Of a DNA stretch of 49,366 nucleotides, positions 10,529-25,945 are shown piece by piece. The DNA is taken from positions 1 to 49,366 of the forward strand of contig JAJZBW010000002.1 of the NCBI GenBank assembly GCA_021798745.1, written 5' to 3'. The translations under genes were made by a program, and so were the position numbers. Source of the stretch: Actinomycetes bacterium (GTDB lineage: Bacteria > Actinomycetota > Acidimicrobiia > Acidimicrobiales > Bog-793). Below the pieces are notes generated by a model. It had not been told where the DNA came from. It worked only from the letters and a program-made list of their open reading frames with translations, and ran no database searches. Every line of letters begins with the position of its first letter. Position 1 is the stretch's first letter.

Positions 10529-11352
10529 GGTCCACCGGGTCCCCGTCGAGGGCGCTTCGGATCGCCGCGGTCCAGTGCGATGTCGCCTGGGAAGACCGCG
10601 CCGCGAACCTCGGGCGCGCGGCGCGCGACGTCGCGGCGGCGGCGGACCAGGGGGCTCGCCTCGTGGTGTTCCCGGAGATGTTCCCGACGGGGTTCTCGAT
10701 GCGCACGGAGGTGGTCGCAGAGCCCGAGGACGGCCCGACGGCGGCCTTCCTGCACGAGCAGGCGGTGACGCGGGGGGTGCACGTCGGAGGCTCCTTCGCG
10801 TGCAGCGCCGCCGGTCGGGACCGACCCGTGAACCGCTTCCTCCTCGCCGCGCCAACGGGCGTGGACACCGTCTACGACAAGCTCCACCCGTTCAGCTACA
10901 GCGGCGAGGGCGAGCACTACGCGCCCGGGCGAGAGATCGTGACGACCTCGGTCGACGGGGTCCGGGTCACCCCGTTCGTCTGCTACGACCTGAGGTTCGC
11001 GGACGTGTTCTGGGACGCTGCAGCCGACACGGACGCGTACGTCGTGGTCGCGAGCTGGCCCGCGGCACGCAAGCAGCACTGGCGGGCGCTTCTTGCCGCT
11101 CGGGCCATCGAGAACCAGGCGTACGTGGTCGGCGTGAACAGGACGGGGACGGGCGGGGGCGTCGCGTACGAGGGGGGGAGCGTCGTGTTCGCACCCTTTG
11201 GCGAGGTCGTCGGCGAGGCCGGGACGGGTCCGGAGCTGCTCGTCGCGACGGTCGACCCGGACGAGGTGGGCGAGGTGAGGTCGCGCTATCCGTTCCTCGC
11301 GGACCGTCGTCGTGGCGAGGTGGCGCGGCGGCTGCCCGCGAGCTCCTCGTAG
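10525..11352 (+). CDS. Carbon-nitrogen hydrolase (nitrilase superfamily; omega-amidase/Nit2-like)
   Basis: The pattern LRIAAVQCDVAWED..., VVFPEMFPTGF (catalytic Glu), the YDKLHPF Lys region, and FVCYDLRF (catalytic Cys) is typical of the C-N hydrolase fold. The ATG at 10525 overlaps the aminotransferase stop as ATGA. Confidence 0.85.
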   Translation: MRSTGSPSRALRIAAVQCDVAWEDRAANLGRAARDVAAAADQGARLVVFPEMFPTGFSMRTEVVAEPEDGPTAAFLHEQAVTRGVHVGGSFACSAAGRDRPVNRFLLAAPTGVDTVYDKLHPFSYSGEGEHYAPGREIVTTSVDGVRVTPFVCYDLRFADVFWDAAADTDAYVVVASWPAARKQHWRALLAARAIENQAYVVGVNRTGTGGGVAYEGGSVVFAPFGEVVGEAGTGPELLVATVDPDEVGEVRSRYPFLADRRRGEVARRLPASSS

Positions 11353-13934
11353 AGGGCGCGGGTCTCCTCGGACGGCTCGCCTCCGTCCAGGATCGCGAGC
11401 CCGGCTTCGAGGTCGTGCCACTCCCGGCGGAGCGCGTCGGGGTCTCCCGAGAGGTCCGCGAGGATCATCGCGTCGCGAGCGAGCATCTCCGAGCACGGCT
11501 CGACGATCCGCCCCTTCGAGACCGCCCAGCTCGCGAGGTCGAGCTCGCGACCGGCGATGGCGAGGGACGCGAGGTGGTGGCTCGCGTCGACGACCGACGA
11601 CACCATGGTCGTGAGGAGGCCTCGGGACACGAGCCAGTCCCACCCGGACGGCGACTCCGAGCACGGGAGACCTCCGACGAGGTCGAGCGCGCCGGCCAGG
11701 AGCTCGATCGCCTCCGGGACCGACGACGTGCGGGCGCGCGTGGACATCTGCTCGAAACGGGTCCAGTCGCAGGTCACGCGCTCGTCGAGCCGGTAGCGCC
11801 CGCCCGAGGAGGCGGGGAGCAGGAAGCGCCCCTCCTCGTCCGTGCCGAGCGCCGATCGTGCTGCCGAGGCGACGTTGTGGACACGGCCGAGCGACGCGAC
11901 TCGGTCGCTCCGCCCGAATACCTGCTCGCGTATCGCGTCGGTCGTCGCGCCATGGCCGGCGAGCGCGAGGTAGGCGACGAGCTCGACGACTCGCGAGCGG
12001 TCCTTGCTCGCGAGCGGGGACGCAAGCCCCGTGAGCGACGGGACAGGGGCGAGCACACAGATCTCGACCTGCCCGGGCCCGGCGCGCCTCGACGGCCGGC
12101 CGGTCGACGCGACGCCAGGTGCGGGGGCGGCCGGACGCACGAGGAGGGGCCGGTCGAGGAGGTCGTCCGCGAGCGCCGCCTGGAGCGCGGTGGGCGAGCG
12201 CGCGAGCAGCTCCACGCCGTCGGGGAGCACGACGAGGGCACCGTGCTCGACGACCACGGTGACGGCGATCTCGGGACCGCCTCGGACCGAGGTCGTCACG
12301 ATCCCCGCCCTCTCCCCGATCGCCGCGCGGAGGTCCGGCCCGAGAGCGTCGGCGGGCGGACCGTCGAGGACGACGAGCACGTGCTGTGGCTCGCTGCGAA
12401 CGGCCCGGTCTGCCGCGTCGGGGAGGGGCGAGCGCGCGAGGGCGACGAGCTCCGAGGCGCTCGACGGCGCGACCGTGTGGTCGCAGCGGGACCCTGGGGG
12501 AGGGTCGACCCCGAGGAGCTCGACCTGGAGAGCGCTCGCCCACGGGAGGGTGCAGAGCGCGGTGACCATCGCGTCGAGATGGGGACGCAGGGGGGCGCCG
12601 TCCGCGCTCCGTAGGAGGAGGTGGCGACGCGGGCCGACTGCGGCGAGATAGGACGCCTCCGCGGAGTCCCCAATCGGCACGAGAGCCGGGACGTGCCGTC
12701 GGAAGCCGTCGACGAGTGCGAGGAGGTCGGCGAGCGCGATGTCGGGATCGAGCACCCAGGTCCAGCCTCCGTCGCGTGACAGGAACCCCTCGGGCGGGTC
12801 GACGACCGGGGCGTCGAGGAGGAGCTCGACCCCGTCGGGCCCGGCGCGCACGAGGCGCACCTCGGGCAGAGCGCCTCGCCGGTCGCGAAGGGCGCGCGTG
12901 AGGAGCCTGTTCGCGCCGTCCACCCAGTCGAGGAGAGTCGTGTCCGCGAGCGGGTCGAGCGCCGCCGCGGCGGAGGCGGTGTGGGGATCCCCCTCCGCGG
13001 CGCGCTCGCCCGGTCGGCGCATGCACTCGGTCGAGCGGCGTGAAGATCGGATCTTGCGCGCGAGAGCCGCGGTCGTGAGCATCCCGAGGCCGAGAATCCC
13101 GAGCTCGGCGAGCCCGCGCACGGGGATGCCGCCCGGGTGTGGCCCGGTGCTCGGCGGATCGGGGTGCCGCGTGACCTCGAGGGCCCGCTCCGTCCGCCGG
13201 GCCGCGACGACCCGCCGACGAGGCAGGCCGGTCGAGCTTCGCTCCGCCGCGCTGCGCTCGGTGGTGGCGCGCGGCATCGTCCTCGATCCTGCTCGACGCG
13301 AGACGACGGGTGCCCCGGGGGCAGAGGGGATGGCGAGCACCCATCCGGGGTACACGAGGCTCGGGTCGACGAGACGCCTCCCGTCCGGCTCGTGCCGGTC
13401 CTGGTTGAGGCGCCAGAGGGTCGTCCACTCGGCCGCGTCTCCGAGCAGTCGGGCTGCGATCGACGCGAGGCAGTCGCCGGGCCGGACGACGTAGCTGCGC
13501 ACCGCGGGGGACGGATCACCTGAGGCGACTGCGGGTGTCTCCGCGTGTGCTGCGACGGGGGGACTCGCTAGGGACGGGGCCGCGTACGCGGCGCTCGCGC
13601 CGACGGTGAGGCCCGATCCGAGGACGAGCAGGAGCCCGGCGACCCGAGTCGCCCAGCGGGCCGACCACGAGCGCGAGGGCGACGCGAGACGACCGTCGAG
13701 GGCGCGCGCGACGTCGCGTACGAGCCGGACGGCCGCGGCGCCCCACAGGGCGGCGACGAGCGCGATCACGAGGTGGTCGATCGTCGCCCGTGCGAGCCAC
13801 GGCTCGGAGGCGCGCGGAGCGGAGGGAGCCAGCGCCCAGAGCCGGGCGAGGGCGACGGGCACCCCTCCTAGGAGCACGGCGCACTTCGCGAGCGCGACGA
13901 GACCCGAGAACGTTGCTCTCGAGCGGGTCGTCAT
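11286..13934 (-). CDS. Membrane-tethered regulator: 3 TM + extracytoplasmic LysM + TM + unknown cytoplasmic region + winged-HTH/BTAD (SARP-type) C-terminus
   Basis: Hydrophobic helices lie at about aa 11-33, 53-72, 96-117 and 274-292. A LysM signature lies at aa ~147-203 (YVVRPGDCLASIAARLLGDAAEWTTLWRLN...YPGWVLAIP). The C-terminus (VEICVLAPV...SRVVELVAYLALAGHGATTDAIREQVFG...RYRLDERVTCDWTRF...) is followed by TPR-like BTAD helices ending in ALYEELAG. Confidence 0.75.
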   Translation of the reverse strand: MTTRSRATFSGLVALAKCAVLLGGVPVALARLWALAPSAPRASEPWLARATIDHLVIALVAALWGAAAVRLVRDVARALDGRLASPSRSWSARWATRVAGLLLVLGSGLTVGASAAYAAPSLASPPVAAHAETPAVASGDPSPAVRSYVVRPGDCLASIAARLLGDAAEWTTLWRLNQDRHEPDGRRLVDPSLVYPGWVLAIPSAPGAPVVSRRAGSRTMPRATTERSAAERSSTGLPRRRVVAARRTERALEVTRHPDPPSTGPHPGGIPVRGLAELGILGLGMLTTAALARKIRSSRRSTECMRRPGERAAEGDPHTASAAAALDPLADTTLLDWVDGANRLLTRALRDRRGALPEVRLVRAGPDGVELLLDAPVVDPPEGFLSRDGGWTWVLDPDIALADLLALVDGFRRHVPALVPIGDSAEASYLAAVGPRRHLLLRSADGAPLRPHLDAMVTALCTLPWASALQVELLGVDPPPGSRCDHTVAPSSASELVALARSPLPDAADRAVRSEPQHVLVVLDGPPADALGPDLRAAIGERAGIVTTSVRGGPEIAVTVVVEHGALVVLPDGVELLARSPTALQAALADDLLDRPLLVRPAAPAPGVASTGRPSRRAGPGQVEICVLAPVPSLTGLASPLASKDRSRVVELVAYLALAGHGATTDAIREQVFGRSDRVASLGRVHNVASAARSALGTDEEGRFLLPASSGGRYRLDERVTCDWTRFEQMSTRARTSSVPEAIELLAGALDLVGGLPCSESPSGWDWLVSRGLLTTMVSSVVDASHHLASLAIAGRELDLASWAVSKGRIVEPCSEMLARDAMILADLSGDPDALRREWHDLEAGLAILDGGEPSEETRALYEELAGSRRATSPRRRSARNG

Positions 13935-13940
13935 CCGGGG

Positions 13941-14780
13941 TCACCTCCGCTGCGCCGGGTAGTGGGCGACGAGCGAGTACGACACGACTGCGGCCGTGCC
14001 AACGGGCTCGGCGATCGTGACCTCGCAGTTTCCCGGCTCGCCTACCGCAGACACGTACAGTCCCGTCGTCCCCGTTGCCGACCGCGACCCGCCCGCGCAC
14101 ACGACCGAGATCCTGAGCTCGGGAGCTCCGGACCAGGCTGCGGTCGCGGAGACGACGCCGCCCGAGGTCCGGAGCGCGAACGCCGCGGACACGTCGTCCG
14201 GGTACTGGAGGTTGCCCGGCCAGGACACGGTCACGACCGCCGGCCCGGGTGGCGTGCTCGGTGGGGGCGCGCCCGCGGACGGAGCGTTAGCCGCGGGACC
14301 GGCACGCCTCGTCGGTCGCGCGCTCGGGCTCGTAGTCGCGACTGTCGACGTCCTCGTCGGAGCAGCGGTCGTCGGAGCAGCGGTCGTCGGAGCAGCGGTC
14401 GTCGGAGCAGCGGTCGTCGGAGCAGCGGTCGTCGGAGCAGCGGTCGTCGGAGCAGCGGTCGTCGGAGCAGCGGGCAGCCGCGTCGTCCCCGAGGAAAGCG
14501 GGCCCTGCTTTGTTGCATACCGCGGCGGGGCCGAGGGTGGGACGGTCGCGCTCCCCTCTCGCCTCCGGCCGCGCGAGGGCTCCGCGGAGCGCTCTCCGTG
14601 GACCCCGCTGCGGGAGGCGTGCACGGGGCGTGCGGTCGTGAGAACGACGACGGCAGCGACGGCGATGCCGAGAGCGAGCCACGAGGCGAGCTCGTGACGG
14701 GGCCGCCGCTCGTCGGCGGTGCGCCGAGCGGCGCGTCGGCGGCGTCGGCTGCCGGACGACGGTGCGGCGCGTGCGGTCAC
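13941..14780 (-). CDS. Single-pass membrane protein with (AAPTT)n linker and Cys-containing C-terminal beta-rich domain
   Basis: An Arg-rich N-terminus of ~30 aa is followed by a TM helix (LASWLALGIAVAAVVVLTTA) and then 7-8 AAPTT repeats. A ~100-aa C-terminal domain carries 2 Cys. The gene overlaps the sigma-like gene stop by 4 nt, and its own stop lies 6 nt before the start of the next gene. It sits in the anti-sigma position but lacks a canonical anti-sigma domain. Confidence 0.6.
   Translation of the reverse strand: MTARAAPSSGSRRRRRAARRTADERRPRHELASWLALGIAVAAVVVLTTARPVHASRSGVHGERSAEPSRGRRREGSATVPPSAPPRYATKQGPLSSGTTRLPAAPTTAAPTTAAPTTAAPTTAAPTTAAPTTAAPTTAAPTRTSTVATTSPSARPTRRAGPAANAPSAGAPPPSTPPGPAVVTVSWPGNLQYPDDVSAAFALRTSGGVVSATAAWSGAPELRISVVCAGGSRSATGTTGLYVSAVGEPGNCEVTIAEPVGTAAVVSYSLVAHYPAQRR
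14356..14475 (-). repeat. 15-bp tandem repeat (plus-strand unit GTCGGAGCAGCGGTC), 7 perfect copies plus 1 copy with one mismatch
   Basis: Read directly: units start at 14356, 14371, ... 14446 and are identical, and the unit at 14461 ends CGGGC instead of CGGTC. The repeat is in-frame and encodes (AAPTT)n on the minus strand. Confidence 0.95.
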
Positions 14781-15496
14781 CGAACCACCGCCTGCTCCGC
14801 GAGCCGGCGCCGGTACGCGAGATGCGACGCGCTCTCGCCGGTCATCTCGGCAAGCTCGGCGAGCCGGTACCCGTGGACGCGGGTCGCGACGAGGAGCGCG
14901 ACGTCGCGTGGGGCGACCAGCGACCCGGAGAGCAGTGCGAGCGCGTGGGCGAGCTCGCTCAAAAGGTCGACGCCCGGCGAGGGCAGGTCGTCCAGGTCGT
15001 CTGGCGATCGGCGGCGGGCGAGGTCGCGTCGGTGGCGTTCGAGGTCAGTGCGCAGCGAGCGGCGAGCCCGCTCCAGGATCACCCGACAGGGCCGCTCGAG
15101 GGTGAGCCCCGCATGGAGCCGGGCAGAGCGCCAGGCGGCGGCGACGAGATCGGACTCGAACTCGTCCCGGTCCGACCAGGGGCCGCCTTCGCCCCAGTGC
15201 AGGGATCTGGCGACGCGCGTGAGCCCGGGGATGAGAAGGCGGACGACCGTCACCCCGACGAGCTCGTCACACTCGAACTGTCGAACGAGTGCTGCGATGG
15301 CGGCGTTCACGAGATCAGGGGGAACGGCTCGCGCCCGACCGCTCGTCACGGCGACGAGCTCGGAGAGGTCGCGCGCGTCGAGGCGGGCGACGTCCGGCTC
15401 GAGCGCGGCGAGTCGATCGACGACCGCGCGAGCGCGCGGGGACGCCGCGACAAGCTCCCATCTCCGTCGGACCGTGTCGAGGGCACGCACCGTCAT
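14777..15496 (-). CDS. Divergent sigma-70/ECF-like sigma factor (region-4 HTH clear, region 2 weak)
   Basis: The C-terminus PRDVALLVATRVHGYRLAELAEMTGESASHLAYRRRLAEQ fits the sigma region-4 / LuxR-like HTH pattern. The central LIPGLTRVARSL...DEFESDLVAAAWRS loosely resembles region 2. It is the first gene of a 3-gene minus-strand unit. Confidence 0.5.
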   Translation of the reverse strand: MTVRALDTVRRRWELVAASPRARAVVDRLAALEPDVARLDARDLSELVAVTSGRARAVPPDLVNAAIAALVRQFECDELVGVTVVRLLIPGLTRVARSLHWGEGGPWSDRDEFESDLVAAAWRSARLHAGLTLERPCRVILERARRSLRTDLERHRRDLARRRSPDDLDDLPSPGVDLLSELAHALALLSGSLVAPRDVALLVATRVHGYRLAELAEMTGESASHLAYRRRLAEQAVVR

Positions 15497-15806
15497 CGGG
15501 GCGACTGTGCCACCCGCTATTCACGCGTTGCCTCACCTGTCTATTCACGGTGCAGATCACGACCTATCGGCGTGGTCCGACTGCTCACGCCTCACCTCAC
15601 GCGCTGTGATCACAGGACAGCCTGCTCGGATGATGTCGGCCCAATCGAAGAAATACCACAGCACGACAACGCATCTCCCGCGTCGTCCGGCCGCCCGTGG
15701 CACGGGAGGGAGAAGTTTCACCGTTCTTGCCTGTGCCTCGCCAAGTACTCCTTGACGCGAATAGCGCGTCGTAGGTTCACGATACGCACAGGAAGGCGTA
15801 CACAGT
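15497..15806. promoter_or_regulatory. Divergent promoter/operator region between the sigma-like gene and the adhesin gene
   Basis: This 310-bp spacer is visibly lower in GC. It carries the direct repeat CTATTCACG at 15517-15525 and 15541-15549, GCCTCACCT at 15530-15538 and 15589-15597, and a perfect 12-bp palindrome CTGTGATCACAG at 15604-15615. AGGAAGG lies ~12 nt before ATG 15807. Confidence 0.45.
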
Positions 15807-18800
15807 ATGAAGGGCCCGTGCACCCGCGTGACTCTGCGGCGAGCCTTCGCGGTCGTCGTCGGCGTGGCGGGCGCAGCCTGCCTCCTCGCGGTCCTCGGTT
15901 CCGCACCCGCGGCGGCGTCGGAGGTCTGCGGGACGACGACCGTCGCGTCCGCGTACAACGGCGCGTGCGCGACGTTCGAGGGAGTGTCCGGCTGGTTCGG
16001 CACCTACGGGCCGGGGTTCCCGACGGCGACCGGCTGGGCGCTCGCTGCCGGGTCACCGGCCCCGGGCCCCGGCCCCAGCCCTGCGGGCGCGTACTCGGCC
16101 GCGGTCGCGCCCGTCGGATCGGACACGGGGTCGCTTCCCGCGCTCGGGTACGCGCTCGGCGAGGCGACCGCTGCCGGCGCGTGGGCTGGCGGCGCGTCGT
16201 TCAGCGCGGACGACGCGGCGGTCGCCGCGGAGCTCCTCTACGACCACCTCGTCTGGGGAGCGCCAAGCCCGCTGCTCGCCGCCGGTGAGCTCGCCGCTTA
16301 CGACGAGCTCGAGGCGTGGTTCGCGGGCGCATCGGGAGCGACGGGGAGCCCGACGCTCGACATGAACACCACGGGAATCGGCCCCGTGCCGACTGCGGGG
16401 GCGATCTACCAGGTCCGGCTCGTGTTCCCCGGGTCGGGCGCGGCCGCCTCGGGGGTCCCAGTCACGCTCACGCTCCACGGGGGGACCTTTGCGGGTGGCG
16501 CGACGGCCGCGACGCTCACGACGGACTCGCTCGGCGACGTGAGCGCGGAGGTGTACGCGGACAGCTCCAGCACCCCGGTCACGGTCGACGCTGCCGCGTC
16601 GGTGGGCGCGCTCGGACTTCAGTTCCTCGCTACGGGCGCCGGTGACGAGGTCGTGAGCCCAGAGTCCCCCGTCACGACCTCGAACTCCGACACGATCGCC
16701 CCCTCCGGACAGCCGGCAGGTACCGGGACCGTGTCGGTGGACGAGGGCGGTGACGACGTCGCCTATCTCGGGCTCTCCGGCGGCGTCTACCAGGTCGTGG
16801 GCACGGCCGGGACGGTTGTCGCGACGCTCACGACGAACTCCTCGGGCGCAGCCGGCCCAAGCTTGCCTCTGCCGGCCGGGACCTACACGGTCCGCGAGTC
16901 GACCGCGCCGCTGGGGTACGCCCCGGGCCCGGACCAAACCGTGACCGTTCTCGACGGGGGCAACGTCACGGCGCATTTCACGGGAGCTAACGAGAACACG
17001 GCTATTCCTGCGACACTTGATGTGAACGACACGGATGAACAGACTGGCGTTCCGCTGGCATACGCCACGTTCGATATCAGATTTGATTCCCAGGGCAACG
17101 GATCGTTTGGAACTGACCTCGGGACGTGTACGACGGATGCGCAAGGCACTTGCCAGCCTCCTTCCAACGACGGAGCGAGCTTTCTTCCTGGGAAATACCT
17201 GATTTCCGAAGTCGGTCCAGCACCTGGTTACGCGGCATCTACGAGCAATTCAAATGTCATAACGCTCGAGCCCGGTGCGACGGTATCTCTCAGCATTCAG
17301 GAGCTGTTGCTCGGCTCCCTTACGGTCTCCATGACGGGGAACGACACGGCCTACTACCCGGTCGGTGGGGCGCAGTTCGAGGTGTCCGGGCCCGCTCCGT
17401 CGAACGGGCTGGCGGGGACGGTCACGGTCGGGGCGTCCGGGCCGTCGGGAGCGGTGGGAGGTCTCGAGCCGGGGATCTACACGCTCACAGAGACGAAGCA
17501 GCCGCCGGGCTACGCGGCTGTGCCTCCGTTCGACACCTCCGTGTCGCTCGGGCACGCGACGACAGTGGCGCACGTGGCGGATTCCGTCGACCCGGGGACG
17601 CTCGACGTGTACAACGTCGCGTCGGGGACGAGCGCACCCGTCGTGGGCGGAGTGTTCGACGTGCGGTACGACGCGACGGCGTCCGGCGTGTACGGAGACG
17701 ACCTCGGCGAGTGCACGACGAGCTCGATCGGGGCGTGCTCTCCCAGCTCGGGAGGGGCCATCGGGCTCCTGCCCGGGCGTTACGAGGTCACCGAGGTGTC
17801 GGCGCCGCCGGGGTACGCGCCCGGAGCGGGCGCGACGAGCCGGTACGTGGTGCTCGCGCCGGGGTCGGCGGCGGTCGTCGACTTCGCGGACCCGAGGCTC
17901 GTCGCGGTCGAGTTCGCCAAGCACCCGACGGGGAACGTCGACCCCGTCGCGCTGGACGTCGCGGGCGCGCGCCTCGTGGTGGACGCGACGGGCAGCCCGG
18001 GGGGCGCGGTCGCGACGTGCACGACGGACGGCGCGGGAACCTGCACGACGCAGCCGGCCCTCGTGCCCGGGGATAGATACTGCTGGGTCGAGACCGTCGC
18101 GCCCCCGGGCTTCGTGGCGGGCGAGAGCGGATGTCTCGTGGCCGCGTCGGGAGCGGGCACCGTCGCGGTCGCGGTCGACGAGCCGGGGGAGTTCGTGGAG
18201 GTCACCGCCGCGAAGGTCGACGCGATCGCCCCGGGGGGGGACCTGGCGGGGGCGACCCTCGACCTCTACAGGATGGTCGGCGGGAGCGGCCCTCCCGGCC
18301 CGCCGCCCCCGGCGGGCGCCCCGACGATCGCGGGGGGGACGTGGGTCGCGTCGGTCACGTCCGGGTCGTCGGGCCCGGCGGTGTTCCCGCTCGAGCTGCC
18401 CGGGTACCGGTACTGCGTGGTCGAGGGCACGCCGCCACCCGGCTACCAGGCGGACCGGGCGCCGCGGTGCACCCCGGTCCTCGCGGGCCGGACTTCCGTG
18501 CCTCCCGAGACGGCTCTCGTCACGCTCGCCGACGTCCCGCTCGTCGGTCCGGGCGCGCCCCCACCTCCGGCACCGGGCGAGTGGCCGCCGAAGCCCGACG
18601 CCCCGGCCCCGGCCCCGGCCCCGACCCCGGTCCCGGCCGGGAGCTCGGGGCCACCCGCGGTCGTGGGGACGGTGACGATCCGGGCGCACAAGTTCGACTC
18701 CCTCGCTCCTGCGAGCGCTATCGGGGGCGCGGTCTACGACCTGTACGTGGTCGGACCACCGCTCTCGAGCGTGCCGCCGGTCGAGCCGGGGGACCCCACC

Positions 18801-19553
18801 CCGCGACGGCGCGCGGGCGAGCACTGGGTCGAGCGCGGCCGGACGGACGCGGCGGGAAACCTCTCGTTCGTCGTGCCGTCCGGCCGCTCGTGGTGCCTCG
18901 TCGAGGTCTCGGCACCGCCCGACTTCGTCGCCGACCCCCGTGCGCGCTGCACGCCCGTGCTCGGGAGGGGGAGCCCTCCCGGGGAGGATCGCGTCCTTCT
19001 TCCCGAGCGACCGCGCATGGTCGACATCCAGGCGCACAAGTTCAACTCGCTCGAGCCGGACACGGGCATACCCGGGGCGGTGTACGCGGTCTTCTCCGTC
19101 GGAGGCCGCGCTCCCGGCGCGCGGCCCGCCCGGGGGTTCCCAGTCCCCCGGGGGGTGCCGGGCGGCGCGTTCTACGAGCTCGGGGTCACGGGGCGGGACG
19201 GCGAGATGGTCCTCGAGGTGCCCGCCGGGTACGCGTGGTGCTTGAAGGAGGTCCGCGCGCCGCCGGGGTACCGGTTCGACCCGGCGCTGCACTGCACGGT
19301 CCGTCTGACGGCGCGCCAGGCGGTCGCGCCGGTCGAGATAGCGCTCCCGGAGATCCCCTCGCACCTTCCGATGCCCGCCCGTCCCCCGGCCCCTCCCGCC
19401 CCGGCGCCGCCGACGCTCCCGTTCACCGGCCTCGACGTCGAGCCGATGGTCGAGCTTGCCGGGGCTCTCGCCCTCGCGGGCGCCGTGCTGCTCCTGACCG
19501 CTCGGGGCCGGGGCCGGGGCCGGGGCCGGGGCCGGAGGCGAGGGGAAGTGTGA
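15807..19553 (+). CDS. LPxTG(LPFTG)-anchored cell-wall surface protein with eight SpaA/prealbumin-like (Cna-B-type) repeats
   Basis: The signal peptide is MKGPCTRVTLRRAFAVVVGVAGAACLLAVLGSAPAAA. Eight repeats each end in the motif Y/W-x-[VLI]-x-E-x3-P-P/L-G-Y/F (YTVRESTAPLGYAP, YLISEVGPAPGYAA, YTLTETKQPPGYAA, YEVTEVSAPPGYAP, YCWVETVAPPGFVA, YCVVEGTPPPGYQA, WCLVEVSAPPDFVA, WCLKEVRAPPGYRF). Pro-rich linkers are present. The C-terminus is LPFTG, a hydrophobic helix, and an RGRGRGRGRGRRRGEV tail. Confidence 0.88.
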   Translation: MKGPCTRVTLRRAFAVVVGVAGAACLLAVLGSAPAAASEVCGTTTVASAYNGACATFEGVSGWFGTYGPGFPTATGWALAAGSPAPGPGPSPAGAYSAAVAPVGSDTGSLPALGYALGEATAAGAWAGGASFSADDAAVAAELLYDHLVWGAPSPLLAAGELAAYDELEAWFAGASGATGSPTLDMNTTGIGPVPTAGAIYQVRLVFPGSGAAASGVPVTLTLHGGTFAGGATAATLTTDSLGDVSAEVYADSSSTPVTVDAAASVGALGLQFLATGAGDEVVSPESPVTTSNSDTIAPSGQPAGTGTVSVDEGGDDVAYLGLSGGVYQVVGTAGTVVATLTTNSSGAAGPSLPLPAGTYTVRESTAPLGYAPGPDQTVTVLDGGNVTAHFTGANENTAIPATLDVNDTDEQTGVPLAYATFDIRFDSQGNGSFGTDLGTCTTDAQGTCQPPSNDGASFLPGKYLISEVGPAPGYAASTSNSNVITLEPGATVSLSIQELLLGSLTVSMTGNDTAYYPVGGAQFEVSGPAPSNGLAGTVTVGASGPSGAVGGLEPGIYTLTETKQPPGYAAVPPFDTSVSLGHATTVAHVADSVDPGTLDVYNVASGTSAPVVGGVFDVRYDATASGVYGDDLGECTTSSIGACSPSSGGAIGLLPGRYEVTEVSAPPGYAPGAGATSRYVVLAPGSAAVVDFADPRLVAVEFAKHPTGNVDPVALDVAGARLVVDATGSPGGAVATCTTDGAGTCTTQPALVPGDRYCWVETVAPPGFVAGESGCLVAASGAGTVAVAVDEPGEFVEVTAAKVDAIAPGGDLAGATLDLYRMVGGSGPPGPPPPAGAPTIAGGTWVASVTSGSSGPAVFPLELPGYRYCVVEGTPPPGYQADRAPRCTPVLAGRTSVPPETALVTLADVPLVGPGAPPPPAPGEWPPKPDAPAPAPAPTPVPAGSSGPPAVVGTVTIRAHKFDSLAPASAIGGAVYDLYVVGPPLSSVPPVEPGDPTPRRRAGEHWVERGRTDAAGNLSFVVPSGRSWCLVEVSAPPDFVADPRARCTPVLGRGSPPGEDRVLLPERPRMVDIQAHKFNSLEPDTGIPGAVYAVFSVGGRAPGARPARGFPVPRGVPGGAFYELGVTGRDGEMVLEVPAGYAWCLKEVRAPPGYRFDPALHCTVRLTARQAVAPVEIALPEIPSHLPMPARPPAPPAPAPPTLPFTGLDVEPMVELAGALALAGAVLLLTARGRGRGRGRGRRRGEV
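19504..19533 (+). repeat. (GGGGCC)5 hexanucleotide microsatellite inside the adhesin 3' end
   Basis: Read directly: five perfect GGGGCC units encode the (RG)5 part of the post-anchor tail. A related imperfect (CCCCGG)n tract at 18601-18636 encodes APAPAPTPVPA. Confidence 0.9.
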
Positions 19554-19603
19554 GGCCGCGAGGGACAGCAGGCCGATCGTCACGGCGGGAACCGTGCGAC
19601 GCG

Positions 19604-19635
19604 GCCCGGCCGGGCGATCCGTCGCCCGGCCGGGC
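19604..19635 (+). terminator. Strong GC hairpin ~50 nt after the adhesin stop
   Basis: G-CCCGGCCGGG (19604-19614) pairs with CCCGGCCGGG-C (19625-19635) as an 11-bp stem around a 10-nt loop. There is no U-tract. Confidence 0.4.
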
Positions 19636-19906
19636 GCGCGACGGCGGGGGAAGCGAGACGCCCGGGAGGGCTGCCGTCGTGGCGCGGAGGGGTCGGGGAC
19701 CCGGCGCCGGTCCGCCGCGTGGTGCAGGGGAACAACCCGTCGTGTCCCGGTGTTCGAAGCTGTGCGCCGCGGGTGGTGCGTCTCGCCCCGGGCCCGTGTC
19801 GTCGGGAGGGGACGTGGTGCACGCGCGCCCGTCGCTCGCGTCGCGCGAGCGGATCGCGCGTCGGGACGGACATCCCGGCCCGTCCGGATCGTCAGGAGGT
19901 GGGTCC

Positions 19907-20872
19907 GTGCCTGCAGTGACCGTCGAGGACATCTTGGTGCTCCCGCGGGTGGAGCGACCCGACCCCGTCGCGTCGCGCGAGCGCCCGGTGCGGTCCGTCA
20001 CGGTCGCCCCGAGCGGGTTCGAAGGAGAGGGCTTCCCCGTCCGTCGCGCCTTTGCGGGAGTGCCCCAGGGCGAGCTCGACCCGTTCGTCCACTTGGACCA
20101 GATGGGTGAGGTCGACTACGCGCCCGGAGAGCCGAAGGGCACCCCGTGGCACCCGCATCGCGGGTTCGAGACGGTGACGTACCTGATCGACGGCGTGTTC
20201 CGTCACCAGGACTCGATCGGGGGCGGAGGGCGCATCACCGACGGGGACACCCAGTGGATGACGGCGGGCGCGGGGATACTCCACATCGAGGCCCCACCGG
20301 AGGAGCTCGTCGTGTCCGGAGGGCTCTTCCACGGGGTCCAGCTCTGGGTCAACCTCCCGGCGGCGAAGAAGTGGGAGCCCCCTCGCTACCAGGACATCGG
20401 TCGGGCGAGCCAGACCCTCGTCGCGTCGCACGACGGGGGCGCGCTCGTGAGGATCATCGCGGGGACTCTCGGGGTGCACGGCGGACCGGGCGCCACGCAC
20501 ACCCCGATCACGCTCGTGCACGCGACCGTCGAGCCGGGAGCCCGCGTCGAGCTGCCCTGGCCGAGCGACCAGAACGCGCTCGTGTACGTGCTCGCGGGAT
20601 CGGGGACCGTCGGGAGCGCGGCCCACCCGGTGAGCACCGGTCGACTCGCGGTGCTCGGGGAGGGGGACCACCTCGTCGTCGGGGCGTCACAGGCCCCGGA
20701 CGCCCGTGCCCCGAAGCTCGAGGTGCTCCTCCTCGGCGGCGTACCGATCCGCGAGCCGGTCGCGTGGTACGGGCCGTTCGTGATGAACACCGAGGAGGAG
20801 CTGCGCCAGGCGTTCGACGACTACCAGAAGGGACGTCTCGGACAGGTGCCCGCGACGCACATCGGGTCGTGA
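19907..20872 (+). CDS. Pirin-family protein (bicupin)
   Basis: The translation contains HPHRGFETVTYLIDG, the metal-binding His pattern (HPH...), TQWMTAGAGILHIE and GPFVMNTEEELRQAFDDYQ. The GTG at 19907 has AGGAGG at 19894-19899. Only the last 321 codons of the 913-aa ORF-track frame are gene-like. Confidence 0.9.
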   Translation: MPAVTVEDILVLPRVERPDPVASRERPVRSVTVAPSGFEGEGFPVRRAFAGVPQGELDPFVHLDQMGEVDYAPGEPKGTPWHPHRGFETVTYLIDGVFRHQDSIGGGGRITDGDTQWMTAGAGILHIEAPPEELVVSGGLFHGVQLWVNLPAAKKWEPPRYQDIGRASQTLVASHDGGALVRIIAGTLGVHGGPGATHTPITLVHATVEPGARVELPWPSDQNALVYVLAGSGTVGSAAHPVSTGRLAVLGEGDHLVVGASQAPDARAPKLEVLLLGGVPIREPVAWYGPFVMNTEEELRQAFDDYQKGRLGQVPATHIGS

Positions 20873-20942
20873 TGGGCCCGGCGTAGGCAAGCACCGCGCA
20901 CGGTCCGTCGCGAGACCGCGCGCGCGGAGGCGACTCGGTGCG

Positions 20943-21359
20943 TCACTCCTCCGAGCACCTCGGGCAGCGTCCCTGGTAGACGATGTCGACGCCCGTCACG
21001 ACGAAGCCGTGCGCCTCGCCTGCCCCGAGCTCGGGCACGGATCCGGGAGCGGGCACGTCGCGCAGGTCTCCGCACGAGGTGCACACGAGGTGGTGGTGGG
21101 GGGTAGCGACGTTCGGGTCGTACCGCTTCGGCCCGGCGCCCGCGGACACCTCGAGCACCTCGCCCATCGAGACGAGCTCGTTCAAGGTGTTGTAGACGGT
21201 CGCGAGGCTGATCTCCGGGAGGATGTCGTGGGCGCGTCGATGGACGGTCTCGGCGCTCAGGTGCACGTGGTCTCCGTCGAGGACCTGCGCGACCGCACGC
21301 CGCTGCGGCGTGACCCGCCAGTTCCTCTCTCGAAGCCGCTCCAGGAGATCGCTGATCGT
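20943..21359 (-). CDS. Fur-family metalloregulator (5' end unresolved)
   Basis: The translation contains RVTPQRRAVAQVL, LATVYNTLNELVSMG (recognition helix), HHHLVCTSCG and the terminal CPRC (CxxC...CxxC structural Zn site). There is no in-frame ATG/GTG/TTG between the upstream gene stop (21443) and GTG 21266, so the true start is unclear. The coordinates begin at the first residue of the conserved block. Confidence 0.7.
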   Translation of the reverse strand, partial: TISDLLERLRERNWRVTPQRRAVAQVLDGDHVHLSAETVHRRAHDILPEISLATVYNTLNELVSMGEVLEVSAGAGPKRYDPNVATPHHHLVCTSCGDLRDVPAPGSVPELGAGEAHGFVVTGVDIVYQGRCPRCSEE

Positions 21360-21442
21360 CGGCCCCTCGCCGTCGGCCGGGCGCGGCCAACGCGCCCGGG
21401 TGCGCCGCGCACCTTGGAACGATTCTAGCGGGGCGCGTCCGG

Positions 21443-21880
21443 TCAGCCGGCGAGCAGGACCCCGAGGACGAGCGCGACGAGAGAGGCGAGCGCGGTGACC
21501 GCCCCGTACGCGGCGAGGCCGGCACGCGACCGGGCACGCTGGTGGAGCCAGGCTGCGAGGCCCGCCGCGAGCGCGACCGCGATCTTCGCCGCGAGCACGA
21601 CCTTCCAGGCCGTGCTCTCGTGGGACGGGTGGGTCGCGAGGACGTTCCACACCCCGGTCGCGATGAGGAGCGCGAACGCGGGCCATTCGAGCCTTCCGAA
21701 GGTCCGAGCGATCGCACGCGGGGCACCCTCCCCGAAGCCGCGCACGGTGCCGAGGAGCCCCGCGACGGTGATCTGTCCCCCGACCCACACGGATGCGGCG
21801 AGCACGTGGAGCGAGAGTCGGAGCGCCGTCATGGCCGGTGCGAGCGCGGCGAGCGTGTCCGTCGAGGGTCCCAGGGGCAC
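21443..21880 (-). CDS. Four-helix integral membrane protein (CopD/HemJ-like H-x7-W-x-GG motif)
   Basis: The 145-aa product has four hydrophobic helices. LSLHVLAASVWVGGQ resembles the CopD-family signature. It lies immediately upstream of the Fur-family gene on the same strand. Confidence 0.55.
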   Translation of the reverse strand: MPLGPSTDTLAALAPAMTALRLSLHVLAASVWVGGQITVAGLLGTVRGFGEGAPRAIARTFGRLEWPAFALLIATGVWNVLATHPSHESTAWKVVLAAKIAVALAAGLAAWLHQRARSRAGLAAYGAVTALASLVALVLGVLLAG

Positions 21881-21999
21881 GTGGGGAACCTACCAGCTCG
21901 GACCGGCCCGCCGGCCAGTGTCCCGGGTCGTGCACGGTTAGGCTCGCCCTGTCGCTCCGGTCGTGGCCGGGGCGCGCCGACCACGACCGGGAGCGCCCG

Positions 22000-23370
22000 A
22001 TGTCGACCGCCCTCAGGACGGACCGGTACGAGCTCACGATGCTCGACGCCGCCCTCCGCTCCGGCGTGGCGGGTCGCCGCGCGGTGTTCGAGGTCTTCGC
22101 CCGTTCCCTTCCTCCGGGCCGGCGGTACGGGGTCGTCGCCGGGCTCGGTCGGCTCCTCGAGGCGCTGGAGGAGTTCCGGTTCGGAGCCGAGGAGCTCGCG
22201 TGGCTCGAGAGGGAGCGCGTCGTGTCCGAGCAGGCGCTCGACTGGCTCGGCTCGTACCGTCTCTCGGCCACGGTCGACGCGTACGGAGAGGGGGAGTGCT
22301 ACTTCGCGGACAGTCCGGTGCTCACCGTGGACGCGACGCTCGGCGAGGGGCTGCTCCTCGAGACGCTCGTCCTTTCCGTGCTCAACGCGGACAGCGCGGT
22401 CGCGTCCGCGGCGGCACGGATGGTCGTCGCGGCTCGAGGTCGTGACCTCGTGGAGATGGGGTCCCGGAGGGTCCACGACGCGGCAGCGCCGGCGGTCGCG
22501 CGCGCCGCGTACCTCGCGGGCTTCTCCTCGACCTCGAACCTCGAGGCCGGGAGGAGGTTCGGAGTGCCGACGGCCGGGACGGCGTCGCACGCGTTCACGC
22601 TCGCGTACCCGAGCGAGCGGGACGCGTTCGACGCGCAGCTCGCCTCGAGCGGCCCCGCCACGACGCTCCTCGTGGACACCTTCGACGTGGAGTCCGGGGT
22701 CGAGCACGCGGTCGACGCGGCGCGCCGCGCGGGCGCCTCCGGGCCGGGGGCCGTGCGCATCGACTCGGGGGACCTCGCCTCGCTCGCTCTCTCCGCCCGC
22801 CGGCAGCTCGACCGGCTCGGTGCGAGCGCGACGCGGATCGTCGTCAGCTCGGACCTCGACGAGCACGTGCTCGAGTCGCTCGGCGGCGCACCGGTCGACG
22901 CGTACGGGGTCGGGACGAGCGTCGCGACCGGCGCAGGCGCCCCGACGGCGGGGTTCGTGTACAAGCTCGTCGCGGTCGCGCCGTCGGGCGCTCCCGGCGC
23001 GGAGCTCCACCCGGTCGCGAAGCGATCGGTCGGCAAGGCCGGTCTCGGAGGACGGAAGCTCGCCTACCGGGTCCTCGACGCCTCCGGGACGGCGCGCGGC
23101 GAGCTCCTCGCGCTCGTGGGTCGCGACCTCGACGGGCCGCTCCGTGCGGCAGCGGTTCGGGTCGCGGGGAAGGGTGCGTCGCTCCGCCCGCTGCAGCGTT
23201 CGGTGCTCCTCGCCGGGGAGCCGGTCGGGAGAGAGACGCTCGACGCGGCGCGTGCGCGTGCGCGCACCTCTATCCTCGAGCTCGACCCGGTCGCGCTCGA
23301 CGTCCGACCGGGTGATCCCGCGATGCTCGTCGAGCACGTGCAGGCTGCCGGTCCCGGGCCGAGCGGGTAG
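22000..23370 (+). CDS. pncB: Nicotinate phosphoribosyltransferase
   Basis: The MSTALRTDRYELTMLDAAL N-terminus, GTASHAF and RIDSGDL are characteristic of NAPRTase. I place the start at ATG 22000, since the ORF-track start at 21793 adds an Arg-rich leader that overlaps the divergent gene. Confidence 0.9.
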   Translation: MSTALRTDRYELTMLDAALRSGVAGRRAVFEVFARSLPPGRRYGVVAGLGRLLEALEEFRFGAEELAWLERERVVSEQALDWLGSYRLSATVDAYGEGECYFADSPVLTVDATLGEGLLLETLVLSVLNADSAVASAAARMVVAARGRDLVEMGSRRVHDAAAPAVARAAYLAGFSSTSNLEAGRRFGVPTAGTASHAFTLAYPSERDAFDAQLASSGPATTLLVDTFDVESGVEHAVDAARRAGASGPGAVRIDSGDLASLALSARRQLDRLGASATRIVVSSDLDEHVLESLGGAPVDAYGVGTSVATGAGAPTAGFVYKLVAVAPSGAPGAELHPVAKRSVGKAGLGGRKLAYRVLDASGTARGELLALVGRDLDGPLRAAAVRVAGKGASLRPLQRSVLLAGEPVGRETLDAARARARTSILELDPVALDVRPGDPAMLVEHVQAAGPGPSG

Positions 23371-23456
23371 GCCGCCGGACCCGTCCCGGGCGGCCGGTCG
23401 TGAGCGTCCGTGCGGGCGAGCGCGAACCGGGGCGCGGCTCTCCGGGCAGAGGGTTC

Positions 23457-24488
23457 CTACTCGAGGAACACGCGTGCGACGTCCTCGACGAGCGACCGGC
23501 CGACCCGCTTGAGCTCGCTGGTGGCGTCCTCGAGGGTCACCCTCTCGACCGAGCCGCCGTGGAGCGCGACCATCTCCCCGAACGCACGGTCGTGCGCCGC
23601 GTCGACCGCAGCGATCCCAAAGCGCGTCGCGAGGACGCGGTCGAACGCGGAGGGGGTCCCTCCGCGAAGGACGTGCCCGAGGATCGTGACCCTGCACTCG
23701 AGCCCCGTGAGCCCCTCGAGCTCGCGTGCGACGACGCTCCCGATACCTCCGAGCCGCTCGTGGTCGTACTGGTCGATCTCGGCGGGCGGGAGGTCGAGGG
23801 TCCCCTCCTTCGGCTTCGCCCCCTCTGCCACGACCACGATCGAGGCGAAGCGGCCCTTCTCGTGGCGGCGAGCGAGGTGCCCGGCCACGAGGGAGAGGTC
23901 GAAGGGCTCCTCGGGGACGAGCACGACCGCCGCGCCCGCAGCGAGCCCGCTGTAGAGGGCGATCCAGCCCACGTGGCGGCCCATCACCTCGCAGACCATC
24001 ACGCGGTCGTGGGACTCCGCGGTCGTGTGGAGCCGGTCGATCGCCTCCACGGCGACCTGGACGGCCGTGTCGAACCCGATCGTGAAGTCCGTCCGGTTCA
24101 CGTCGTTGTCGATCGTCTTCGGGATGCCGATCACCGGGACACCCTGCCGGGAGAGCTGGCGCGCCGCGGAGAGCGTCCCCTCGCCCCCGATCGCGACGAC
24201 GGCCTCGATCCCGTGGCGCTCGAGGTTCGCGATCGCCCGGTCGACGCCACCGGGGACCTTGAACGGGTTGTATCGAGAGGTGCCGAGCATCGTCCCTCCG
24301 CGTGGGAGGACCCCGCGGCAGCGCGCGACGTCGAGCGGGAGCGAGTCGTCCTCGACGACGCCGCGCCATCCGTCTCGGAACCCGACCACCTCGTCCGAGT
24401 ACGAGACCGTCGCCTTGCGCACGACCGCTCGGATCGCCGCGTTCAGACCGGGACAGTCGCCTCCGCCGGTAAGGACAGCAACGCGCAT
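23457..24488 (-). CDS. pfkA: 6-phosphofructokinase (PfkA family; GGEG motif suggests the ATP-dependent type)
   Basis: The translation contains MRVAVLTGGGDCPGLNAAIRAVV, VAIGGEGTL, GIPKTIDND and MGRHVGWIAL. Confidence 0.93.
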   Translation of the reverse strand: MRVAVLTGGGDCPGLNAAIRAVVRKATVSYSDEVVGFRDGWRGVVEDDSLPLDVARCRGVLPRGGTMLGTSRYNPFKVPGGVDRAIANLERHGIEAVVAIGGEGTLSAARQLSRQGVPVIGIPKTIDNDVNRTDFTIGFDTAVQVAVEAIDRLHTTAESHDRVMVCEVMGRHVGWIALYSGLAAGAAVVLVPEEPFDLSLVAGHLARRHEKGRFASIVVVAEGAKPKEGTLDLPPAEIDQYDHERLGGIGSVVARELEGLTGLECRVTILGHVLRGGTPSAFDRVLATRFGIAAVDAAHDRAFGEMVALHGGSVERVTLEDATSELKRVGRSLVEDVARVFLE

Positions 24489-24615
24489 CTCCTCGGACCC
24501 TCTCCGCTCGTGGCTTCTCGCGTCACCCGGACCGTCGCGGCGGAGCGCGGTGCCACCACGGTCGGGCGGGACGCGGGCGTCGTCGCAACCCTAGTGGCCA
24601 CGGGAGCGGGCGCGA

Positions 24616-24665
24616 GGTGACCGGTGGGGTCGTCACGTCCGGTGACCGGTGGGGTCGTCACGTCC
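24616..24665. repeat. Perfect 25-bp tandem duplication GGTGACCGGTGGGGTCGTCACGTCC x2 in the pfkA / ABC-SBP divergent spacer
   Basis: Read directly: 24616-24640 is identical to 24641-24665. Each unit contains the inverted pentamers GTGAC...GTCAC. Confidence 0.92.
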
Positions 24666-24813
24666 GGCTCCCGGTCGGATCGCGAGATGTCCCGCGTCCC
24701 GTTACCGATTGTTCAGCGAGCGGTCACGTCGAGGTGGACCGAGCGTAACGGTCGCTTCCTAAGGTCCCCGGCGTCGCTGTGAGACGGAACCGACGCTCGA
24801 CGGGAGAGAGAAC

Positions 24814-25911
24814 GTGACGAAAGTAGCGTACGGATCGACGCGCCCGAGGCGCCCGAGACTCGTGCCGCAGGTCGCTGCGCTGTCCGCGGCGGGAGCGCTC
24901 GCTGCGACGCTCGGGGCAACCGCGGGGGTCGCCTCCGCGAGCTCGGTGCACCGCTCCTCGGGGCGCTCGAAGGTCGTCCCCCTCGTCGTGTACTCGGCAC
25001 AGGGCTACGACAAGCTCGCGACCGAGGACTTCTCGAAGAAGTACCACATCCCGGTCCAGCTGGACGACAACTCGACGGGGCCGCTGCTCACCCAGATCGA
25101 GGCCTCGAAGAACAACCCGAAGTGGGGGCTTCTCTGGGTCGACGGTGCGACCGCGTTCGCGGGCCTCGACACCCAGCACCTCCTCCTTCGCGGCTACGAG
25201 CCCCGCGTGTCGTGGAACTCCCTCGGGCTCCAGGCGCTCCCCAAGGACAAGAGCTACGTGCCGACCGGGGTGACGCTCGCGGGCGCGATGGCCTACGACG
25301 CCGCGAAGGTGCCGAACCCGCCGTCCAGCTGGGCGGACCTGCTCGCCGCGAAGTGGAAGGGCCAGATCGGGACGAACGACCCGAGCCAGTCGGGTCCGAC
25401 CTACCCGTTCGTCGCGGGGATGATGAACGACCTCGGCGGGATCGGCGCGGGGGAGACGTTCTTCTCGGACCTGAAGGCGAACGGGCTCGTCGTGAACCCG
25501 ACGAACGGCCCGACGCTCGCGGCGCTCGCGTCGGGTCAGATCAACATCGCGCTCGTCCAGAGCTCGGCCGCGGTCGGGGCGACCTTCTCGGACAAGAACC
25601 TGAAGGTGCGGTACCTCGACCCGGTCACGATCCTCCCGAGCGCGATCGGGATCGACGCGAAGGCCCCGAAGCAGGAGCAGGTCGAGGCCGAGGAGTTCGC
25701 CTCCTACGTGCTCTCGCCGGCGGGTCAGAAGGTCATGCAGACGGGCGACCCGACGGGCGACTCCCTCTACTACCCGGTCCTGAACGGGATAGCGCCGCGA
25801 AAGGCGCTCCCTCCGCTCACGGGTGTGAAGACCCAGAACATCGACCCGTACGTGTGGGGGCCGAAGGAGAACACGATCAACGCGTGGTTCGACCAGAGCA
25901 TCGTCCAGTAG
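24814..25911 (+). CDS. ABC transporter substrate-binding protein (family-1 SBP, Fe3+/thiamine/polyamine type)
   Basis: The GTG at 24814 has GGGAGAGAG upstream. The signal region is RPRRPRLVPQVAALSAAGALAATLGATAGVASA. Size and pattern (VVYSAQGYD..., PKWGLLWVDG) fit FbpA/AfuA-like binding proteins, and a double-length permease and an ATPase follow it. Confidence 0.82.
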   Translation: MTKVAYGSTRPRRPRLVPQVAALSAAGALAATLGATAGVASASSVHRSSGRSKVVPLVVYSAQGYDKLATEDFSKKYHIPVQLDDNSTGPLLTQIEASKNNPKWGLLWVDGATAFAGLDTQHLLLRGYEPRVSWNSLGLQALPKDKSYVPTGVTLAGAMAYDAAKVPNPPSSWADLLAAKWKGQIGTNDPSQSGPTYPFVAGMMNDLGGIGAGETFFSDLKANGLVVNPTNGPTLAALASGQINIALVQSSAAVGATFSDKNLKVRYLDPVTILPSAIGIDAKAPKQEQVEAEEFASYVLSPAGQKVMQTGDPTGDSLYYPVLNGIAPRKALPPLTGVKTQNIDPYVWGPKENTINAWFDQSIVQ

Positions 25912-25945
25912 AGACGGAGGACGAGACGGCGCGCTCCGCCCGCCG

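Follow-up and report, generated by a model that had tools for sequence, protein, structure and literature searches.

The window analysed here is a stretch of 49,366 nucleotides (nt) from an uncultured actinobacterium of the order Acidimicrobiales (contig JAJZBW010000002.1, assembly GCA_021798745.1, forward strand). At 15807-19553 (+ strand) it carries a gene for a sortase-type surface protein of 1248 amino acids (aa), and inside this gene lies a short block of much lower G+C content (GC), which is our subject. The identification of the protein draws on its open reading frame (ORF), a Pfam match to SpaA (PF17802, E=8.7e-46, 154.5 bits against a cut-off of 23.1), the names given to its orthologues in the sources ('cell wall anchor protein', 'MSCRAMM family protein', 'SpaA isopeptide-forming pilin-related protein') and structural matches found with Foldseek. 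Judged by eye from the translation only, with no predictor, the N-terminus resembles a signal peptide (MKGPCTRVTLRRAFAVVVGVAGAACLLAVLGSAPAAASE). At the C-terminal end the translation contains an LPFTG sorting motif (aa 1204-1208; 19416-19430, + strand) whose residues L1204, T1207 and G1208 are invariant among homologues; the motif is followed by a hydrophobic stretch, LDVEPMVELAGALALAGAVLLL, and by an Arg/Gly-rich tail, RGRGRGRGRGRRRG, that runs to the stop codon. No sortase was recognised among the neighbouring genes examined, the remainder of the window having had no such scan. Naming the protein a 'pilin' is not justified, as a sortase, a pilin motif and isopeptide bonds are undemonstrated; we call it an adhesin.

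An AlphaFold (AF2) model of aa 296-712, built on an alignment of full-length homologues, has a predicted local distance difference test (pLDDT) score of 85.7 and consists of four all-beta domains (beta-sandwiches). The second CnaB/SpaA-type domain (domain 2) is a confident beta-sandwich by model secondary structure and pLDDT; it spans aa ~397-501 (16995-17309, + strand) and coincides with the low-GC block. Domain 2 holds a conserved Cys441/Cys449 pair and an LPGxY...E.....GY motif, all of them invariant alignment columns. Its nearest paralogue is domain 4 (17595-17891, + strand; 37% aa identity), which is strongly conserved among orthologues and has a normal G+C content at third codon positions (GC3) of 0.93. 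Foldseek places the B. anthracis TIE protein, Gram-positive pilins and SdrD at the head of the PDB matches, and a PDB sequence search with domain 2 found no relative.

A sequence-only reading of this DNA, made earlier without database searches, had described one deviant domain in a repeat adhesin, with 201 G+C among the 360 nt of 16981-17340 (+ strand). Its hand counts are exact on recount, both for the block (55.8%; the six 60-nt lines hold 32, 33, 36, 32, 33 and 35) and for its two sides (75% at 16861-16920 and 71.7% at 17341-17400). GC is 73.2% in the whole window, and 360-nt sliding windows have a mean of 0.732 and a standard deviation (sd) of 0.034; the minimum, 0.547, starts at 16975 and lies ~5.5 sd under the mean. 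Only one other stretch of the window falls below 0.62, the divergent intergenic region 15441-15867. That reading had also called for a sliding scan of GC and GC3, and the dip turns out to be significant: a two-change-point likelihood scan along the ORF delimits a low-GC3 block at codons 390-497 (16974-17297, + strand; log-likelihood gain ~44), with a GC3 of 0.537 (58/108) as against 0.910 in the rest of the gene (1037/1140; Fisher p=8.4e-21). GC at first and second codon positions (GC1 and GC2) is likewise reduced. One codon in four of the block (25%) is of the rare, A/T-ending types named in that reading, compared with 3.3% in the remainder of the gene and 2.4% in 13 other genes of the window. 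No further 30-codon window of the adhesin gene has a GC3 below 0.80, hence exactly one domain is affected, and it is the one modelled as domain 2.

The explanation first offered for the block was a single recent import of the domain by recombination from a donor of much lower GC, not yet ameliorated. The strongly atypical composition and the sharp edges speak for such an event. In a HMMER search of 1.84 billion representative proteins, however, the 122-aa block found nothing closer than 36-45% identity, and these best matches belong to the same family and the same position (around aa 400-530), so that a separate database search of the block yields no donor from outside the lineage. A word-index protein search with the 120-aa block gave no match, missing even the window's own protein.

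The relatives of the adhesin are encoded by metagenome-assembled genomes of the Acidimicrobiaceae/Acidimicrobiales, and all sequences compared in this work are metagenome assemblies. Nine orthologue clusters (53-58% aa identity) lie in the same gene neighbourhood as the window adhesin; codons of homologous domains were mapped onto the protein alignment, and further loci were added from a metagenome scan. The homologous domain is low in GC3 in all nine clusters (0.48-0.68, with 0.76-0.89 elsewhere), and the dip is shared by 12/12 loci at >=54% identity, the window included (0.48-0.68 in domain 2, 0.76-0.91 elsewhere in the gene). The 11 other loci are independent assemblies from different samples and assemblers. 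The dip is absent from all of ~30 homologues at <=47% identity, though most of them have the same domain 2. Within the clade this domain is the most variable part of the protein, while in distant homologues its variability is ordinary. A second protein search, seeded with the orthologue P0007, added no new clade members. Between most clade members 0.53-0.63 of the fourfold sites in the flanks differ, which we take as near saturation for this base composition; a relic of one old import would therefore have been erased.

The other half of the earlier proposal, domain-level cassette exchange in a surface protein, is borne out by related species, in which unrelated versions of the block sit on near-identical flanks. 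The sister orthologues P0007 and P0009 are ~93% identical at the nucleotide level, dropping to 37-57% over aa 414-475 and then recovering, and both synonymous and non-synonymous sites are saturated in the divergent stretch. Quartet counts for (P7,P9|P5,P8) are 133:8:10 in the flanks and 7:4:13 in the block, where another topology is favoured. A lineage-specific acceleration in P0007/P0009 was also considered: triplet counts left it possible, and the quartets and then the swaps within species ruled it out.

The swaps were found among members of 90%-identity protein clusters and two further loci, species being named by cluster. L005 (version B) and L073 (version A), both from species '7', are identical at 3810/3816 nt outside the block (99.84%; synonymous divergence, dS, 0.002) and at 134/225 nt (59.6%; dS 1.86) over the 76 codons of the block; dS values throughout are rough and often saturated. 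L008 (version A) and L074 (version C) of species '9' are 97.4% identical outside a block of 122 codons and 53.2% identical within it, and another pair from this species, P0252 (version B) and P0253 (version C), has an aa identity of 1.00 outside and 0.49 inside. The corresponding values are 0.99 and 0.55 for P0005 and P0242 (species '5'), and 0.98 and 0.41 for P0240 and P0238 (species '2'). Very different versions on near-identical flanks are in this way present within each of four sister species. Carried over to the window, the edges from L005 and L073 delimit a minimal swapped cassette of aa 420-494 (17064-17288, + strand), and L008 and L074 a longer tract of aa 415-535 (17049-17411, + strand). 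The versions are 33-64% identical, with indels between them, and all retain the reading frame and the family-specific motifs. These alignments show versions being exchanged between otherwise identical genes via recombination in the conserved flanks.

Could the block be an assembly artefact, a chimeric join with reads from a lower-GC organism? The contig is metagenome-assembled, and contigs of other assemblies break at the block. Yet frame and family motifs are continuous over both junctions, and the same pattern occurs in 11 other loci from different samples and assemblers. In addition, L072, a second assembly of the window's own organism that corresponds to 17066-27553 and is identical to the window, reproduces the right junction and 275 nt of the block exactly. 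Certain version/flank combinations recur in independent assemblies (P0007=P0249, P0247=P0248, P0251=P0253), which is evidence against assembly chimeras, and we find an artefact scarcely credible. As to the breaks themselves, L072 starts (17066) 2 nt from the left cassette edge defined in a sister species, and in another species (P0238, P0239) one partial gene ends inside the block and the other begins just past it. Contig breaks at the cassette fit strain polymorphism disrupting the assembly graph.

Two of the versions can be followed across a species boundary. Copies of version A in species 7 and 9 have a dS of 0.318 and a non-synonymous divergence (dN) of 0.075 in the block, against 0.213 and 0.045 in the flanks; copies of version B in the same two species have an aa identity of 0.89 in the block and 0.92 in the flanks. 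Versions A and B have thus diverged about as much as the flanks or more, and must be at least as old as the species split. P0002 and L027, which have the same version, show a dN of 0.013 and a dS of 0.266 in the block, and 0.023 and 0.079 in the flanks. Among copies of the same version, purifying selection acts on the protein. The synonymous rate is 3.4-fold higher in the block between such close relatives sharing a version, with dN not raised, a pattern that fits relaxed constraint on synonymous sites.

Every version seen is low in GC3, at 0.38-0.64 against 0.8-0.9 in the flanks. Versions A and B have a GC3 of 0.55-0.59 in the cassette core and version C one of 0.38, with 0.82 in the rest of the genes. 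Third-position GC<->AT differences between version A copies of the two species are split 6:7, and from this balance it follows that the cassette composition is stationary; for P0002/L027 the split is 6:6 in our own reading of 13 listed synonymous differences. Low GC3 tracks the extent of each version and not a fixed position: over aa 495-535 it is 0.41 in version C and 0.76 in version A of the same species, and low GC3 over aa 390-419 is seen in the window alone.

Taken together, these data leave little of an un-ameliorated import. Each of the 11 other clade loci has the dip in this domain, their synonymous sites being mostly saturated; all versions are low in GC3; no donor turned up; third-position changes are balanced; and version A remained low-GC while diverging with its host species. 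That the segment is exchangeable in this gene family does agree with an import, and of the two findings on orthologues that the sequence-only reading had named as speaking against one, low GC in all relatives and a phylogeny shared with the flanks, the first holds in all close relatives and the second does not, since the block phylogeny differs from that of the flanks. On balance we regard one recent import as very improbable.

Another reading is recurrent import, with a low-GC reservoir, as yet unsampled, among other taxa, phages or plasmids supplying versions that are each foreign and young. Cassette GC (0.48-0.61) is below that of any clade host genome (0.66-0.74) and does not track host GC3, and the low GC moves with the version-specific tract; both points agree with such a reservoir. 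However, the 1.84 billion proteins searched contain no reservoir sequence, and versions A and B, each present in two species and at least as divergent there as the flanks, point to long residence. P0002/L027 and version A show turnover in place with balanced GC<->AT changes, and all versions keep the family motifs and the reading frame. Recurrent import is, in our estimate, unlikely.

Local selection on composition had been named by the sequence-only reading as an alternative, in the form of mRNA structure or translational pausing; more broadly, the block could be a slow-translation zone of rare codons that serves co-translational folding or secretion, a region in which mRNA structure is avoided, or an AT-richer target of a nucleoid-associated silencer. 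This would account for a dip held at the same domain throughout the clade despite complete synonymous turnover, with A/T-ending codons making up ~50% of the domain 2 core in all nine independent lineages. Against it, A/T-ending codons are spread at random over the alignment columns (variance 2.39, with 2.21 expected; p=0.31), low GC3 reaches over different lengths in versions of one species and follows the divergent tract, and distant homologues of the same domain architecture have no dip. Nor does the block show excess RNA structure (fold z=+1.04), a promoter- or terminator-like site or an Rfam match; no embedded RNA, promoter, terminator or tRNA was found in it. Site-specific rare codons were considered separately and rejected: the overdispersion seen over the whole block reflects a centre-to-edge gradient and is gone in the core (again p=0.31). 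The chances of local selection seem slim to us.

Targeted AT-biased hypermutation, by a diversity-generating retroelement (DGR) or another local mutator, would raise synonymous and non-synonymous divergence together, as is seen in the block, and would agree with the 3.4-fold synonymous rate between close relatives that have a common version. Throughout the 49-kilobase (kb) window, however, the segment has neither a second copy nor a template repeat (no search for a reverse transcriptase gene was made). In the window, sensitive blastn and tblastn searches with the block matched just domains 4 and 5, its paralogues (33-37% aa identity), and silent partial copies such as programmed gene conversion would use are likewise absent from these 49 kb, which cover only part of the genome. 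The indels and the 33-64% identity between versions go far past what mutagenesis of A sites produces, the versions recur across genomes and species as discrete inherited alleles, and the shared states in the quartets are incompatible with simple acceleration. Such a mutator is highly improbable.

We therefore consider it likely that what the window shows as a low-GC block is one version of an exchangeable cassette, polymorphic and ~75-120 codons long, that forms the core of domain 2, and that its low GC is long-standing, a state for which we infer escape from a recombination-linked, GC-favouring force as the cause. Balancing (negative frequency-dependent) selection, exerted for example by phages or through partner or kin recognition, would act on an exposed surface domain and maintain the versions. 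Mutation is AT-biased in bacteria, with an excess of GC->AT changes (PMC2936529), and GC3 increases with recombination in many of them (PMC4450053). The cassette may escape a weak GC-favouring force that acts on the rest of the genome, be it GC-biased gene conversion (gBGC) or weak selection. Versions that are only ~40-60% identical would form no heteroduplex with one another, and each version, being carried by a fraction of the population, would have a small effective size at which a weak GC-favouring process is ineffective. Drift would then take synonymous sites to the AT-biased equilibrium set by mutation. A bolder statement, that GC-richness in this lineage is upheld by a recombination-dependent force (gBGC) and not by mutation bias or codon selection, so that the cassette would read out the mutational equilibrium, is one that we put forward only tentatively and hold to be rather doubtful.

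Several points weigh against the long-lived cassette and its proposed cause. The window's own species has so far yielded a single version, as L072 does not differ from the window, and polymorphism is deduced for it from the sister species. With metagenome assemblies throughout, strain chimeras are conceivable, although the recurrent combinations speak against them. The escape of the cassette to low GC is itself a proposal. The stretches of the window taken as intergenic are mostly GC-rich (0.60-0.83), which means that relaxed selection on codon usage cannot by itself give a GC3 of 0.54; some further AT-biased process, or a force that depends on recombination, has to be at work, and the GC-rich intergenic stretches favour the latter without proving it. 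Along the gene as a whole, variability and GC3 are related weakly (rho 0.24, p=0.08), and other variable stretches (aa 81-100 and the Pro-rich linker) show just a weak drop in GC3. A general rule by which variable regions are low in GC3 was tried and, on these grounds, set aside.

What sets this locus apart is a clean, stationary GC3 contrast within a single reading frame. If our interpretation is true, it amounts to a natural experiment on high-GC bacteria, with GC3 values of ~0.5 and ~0.9 a few bases apart in one frame, stable from species to species, and a boundary that shifts with the extent of each version. Cassette and flanks share gene, transcript and expression level, and could serve as a compact test system for the upkeep of high GC by gBGC. 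Where a high-GC gene has a sharply bounded low-GC patch, recent horizontal transfer is the usual explanation, and the locus cautions against taking it for granted: the comparative data show a long-lived, exchangeable polymorphism in its place. For an uncultured environmental actinobacterial lineage it points to a single variable domain that is probably under frequency-dependent selection by phages, predators or partner recognition. A practical effect is that metagenome assemblies break at the cassette edges. In the literature we found no earlier description of low-GC intragenic cassettes in actinobacterial adhesins.

The N-terminal non-repeat region (15918-16700, aa ~38-300) is the best-conserved part across the family, with motifs VCG, GAC and W[YF]G[ST]YGPGFP; it has no Pfam match and is probably the functional 'head' of the adhesin. 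CnaB-type domains often bear the isopeptide Lys at a first-strand position. In distant homologues the first strand of domain 2 (LTIxKxD; ~17040-17050, aa 405-416) carries a conserved Lys, replaced by D, S, N or L in all members of the low-GC clade, which suggests, from the alignment, that stabilisation of domain 2 may have altered when the domain became hypervariable. Domain 3 of the window protein has Met where most orthologues have Lys (SMTGND vs SKTGND). In a group of shorter homologues (L001, L002, P0011-P0013), domain 2 lacks its second half, domain 3 is missing altogether and domain 4 lacks its first half, as unequal recombination or a duplication between the paralogous domains 2 and 4 would be expected to produce. 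Domains 6 and 7 are joined by a Pro-rich linker (18520-18680), which varies by ~60 aa from one orthologue to another. Several orthologues (P0005-P0009) have long Arg/Pro/Ser-rich extensions past the sorting signal that resemble read-through of a lost stop codon, and the tail of the window protein (19470-19553) bears an (RG)n repeat.

Upstream, three genes on the - strand (11286-15496) are transcribed away from the adhesin gene and stand in synteny with it at all clade loci. The nearest encodes a protein of 239 aa (14777-15496); the other two (11286-14780) encode a 279-aa protein with a (TTAAP)n repeat and an 884-aa protein with a weak LysM-like match. Scans of the three against Pfam and NCBIfam gave no function and no confident family, the 239-aa protein having no hit at all; the genes may form a regulatory or envelope module tied to the adhesin. 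The intergenic region 15441-15867 between the 239-aa gene and the adhesin gene has the second-lowest GC in the window (~0.60) and is presumably a shared promoter region; a scan of it for the sigma-70 consensus found no match.

In structure, the adhesin is closest to the TIE protein (6fwv), BcpA, RrgB, the SpaA/SpaD pilins and the B repeats of SdrD, with which it shares tandem beta-sandwiches (Foldseek E 5e-19 to 1e-8), the PF17802 match and an LPXTG-type anchor, at a sequence identity of just 12-19%. We know of no compositionally distinct cassette in any of these proteins. As a genetic arrangement, the cassette recalls hypervariable segments with conserved flanks that are under balancing selection, such as the staphylococcal agr specificity region, Borrelia ospC and the central region of flagellin fliC. 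Sharp boundaries, a small number of very divergent allele classes, sharing across strains and species and recombination in the flanks are common to all; the proteins and their biology are different, and the likeness concerns the working of the cassette, not family membership. Low-GC acquired islands and 'replacement' flexible islands such as O-antigen loci are multi-gene, and their low GC is usually read as foreign. They too are lower in GC than the genome, occur in alternative versions framed by conserved flanks and are connected with the cell surface. Their versions are non-homologous, however, whereas the unit described here lies in one reading frame, has homologous versions and keeps its low GC in place. 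With DGR targets and with programmed gene conversion out of silent cassettes (pilE/pilS, vlsE, tprK) the adhesin shares variability localised in a surface protein, but the window has neither template repeat nor silent copy (a reverse transcriptase was not looked for), and its versions are stable alleles that are inherited and occur in more than one genome.

The allelic types of Gram-positive pili and adhesins offer a close functional parallel. Further examples of such types are the variable domain of group B Streptococcus BP-2a and the A-domain isotypes of S. aureus FnBPA. Like the window adhesin, these are sortase-anchored proteins with CnaB or Ig-like domains, with discrete, strongly divergent alleles within a species and recombination in and around the gene. 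The T-antigen (tee) backbone pilins of group A Streptococcus fall into 15 clusters with >90% identity within each (PMC7900414). Pilus and adhesin types of this kind are those of host-associated pathogens, where they are attributed to immune pressure, and in most cases they concern whole genes or large regions, whereas the cassette is found in an uncultured environmental high-GC host, is confined to 75-120 codons of one stalk-type domain, and has base-pair-sharp edges and a GC3 deficit of 0.3-0.4. The functional likeness of the cassette is to these Gram-positive allelic types (PMC7900414) and to other hypervariable segments with conserved flanks.

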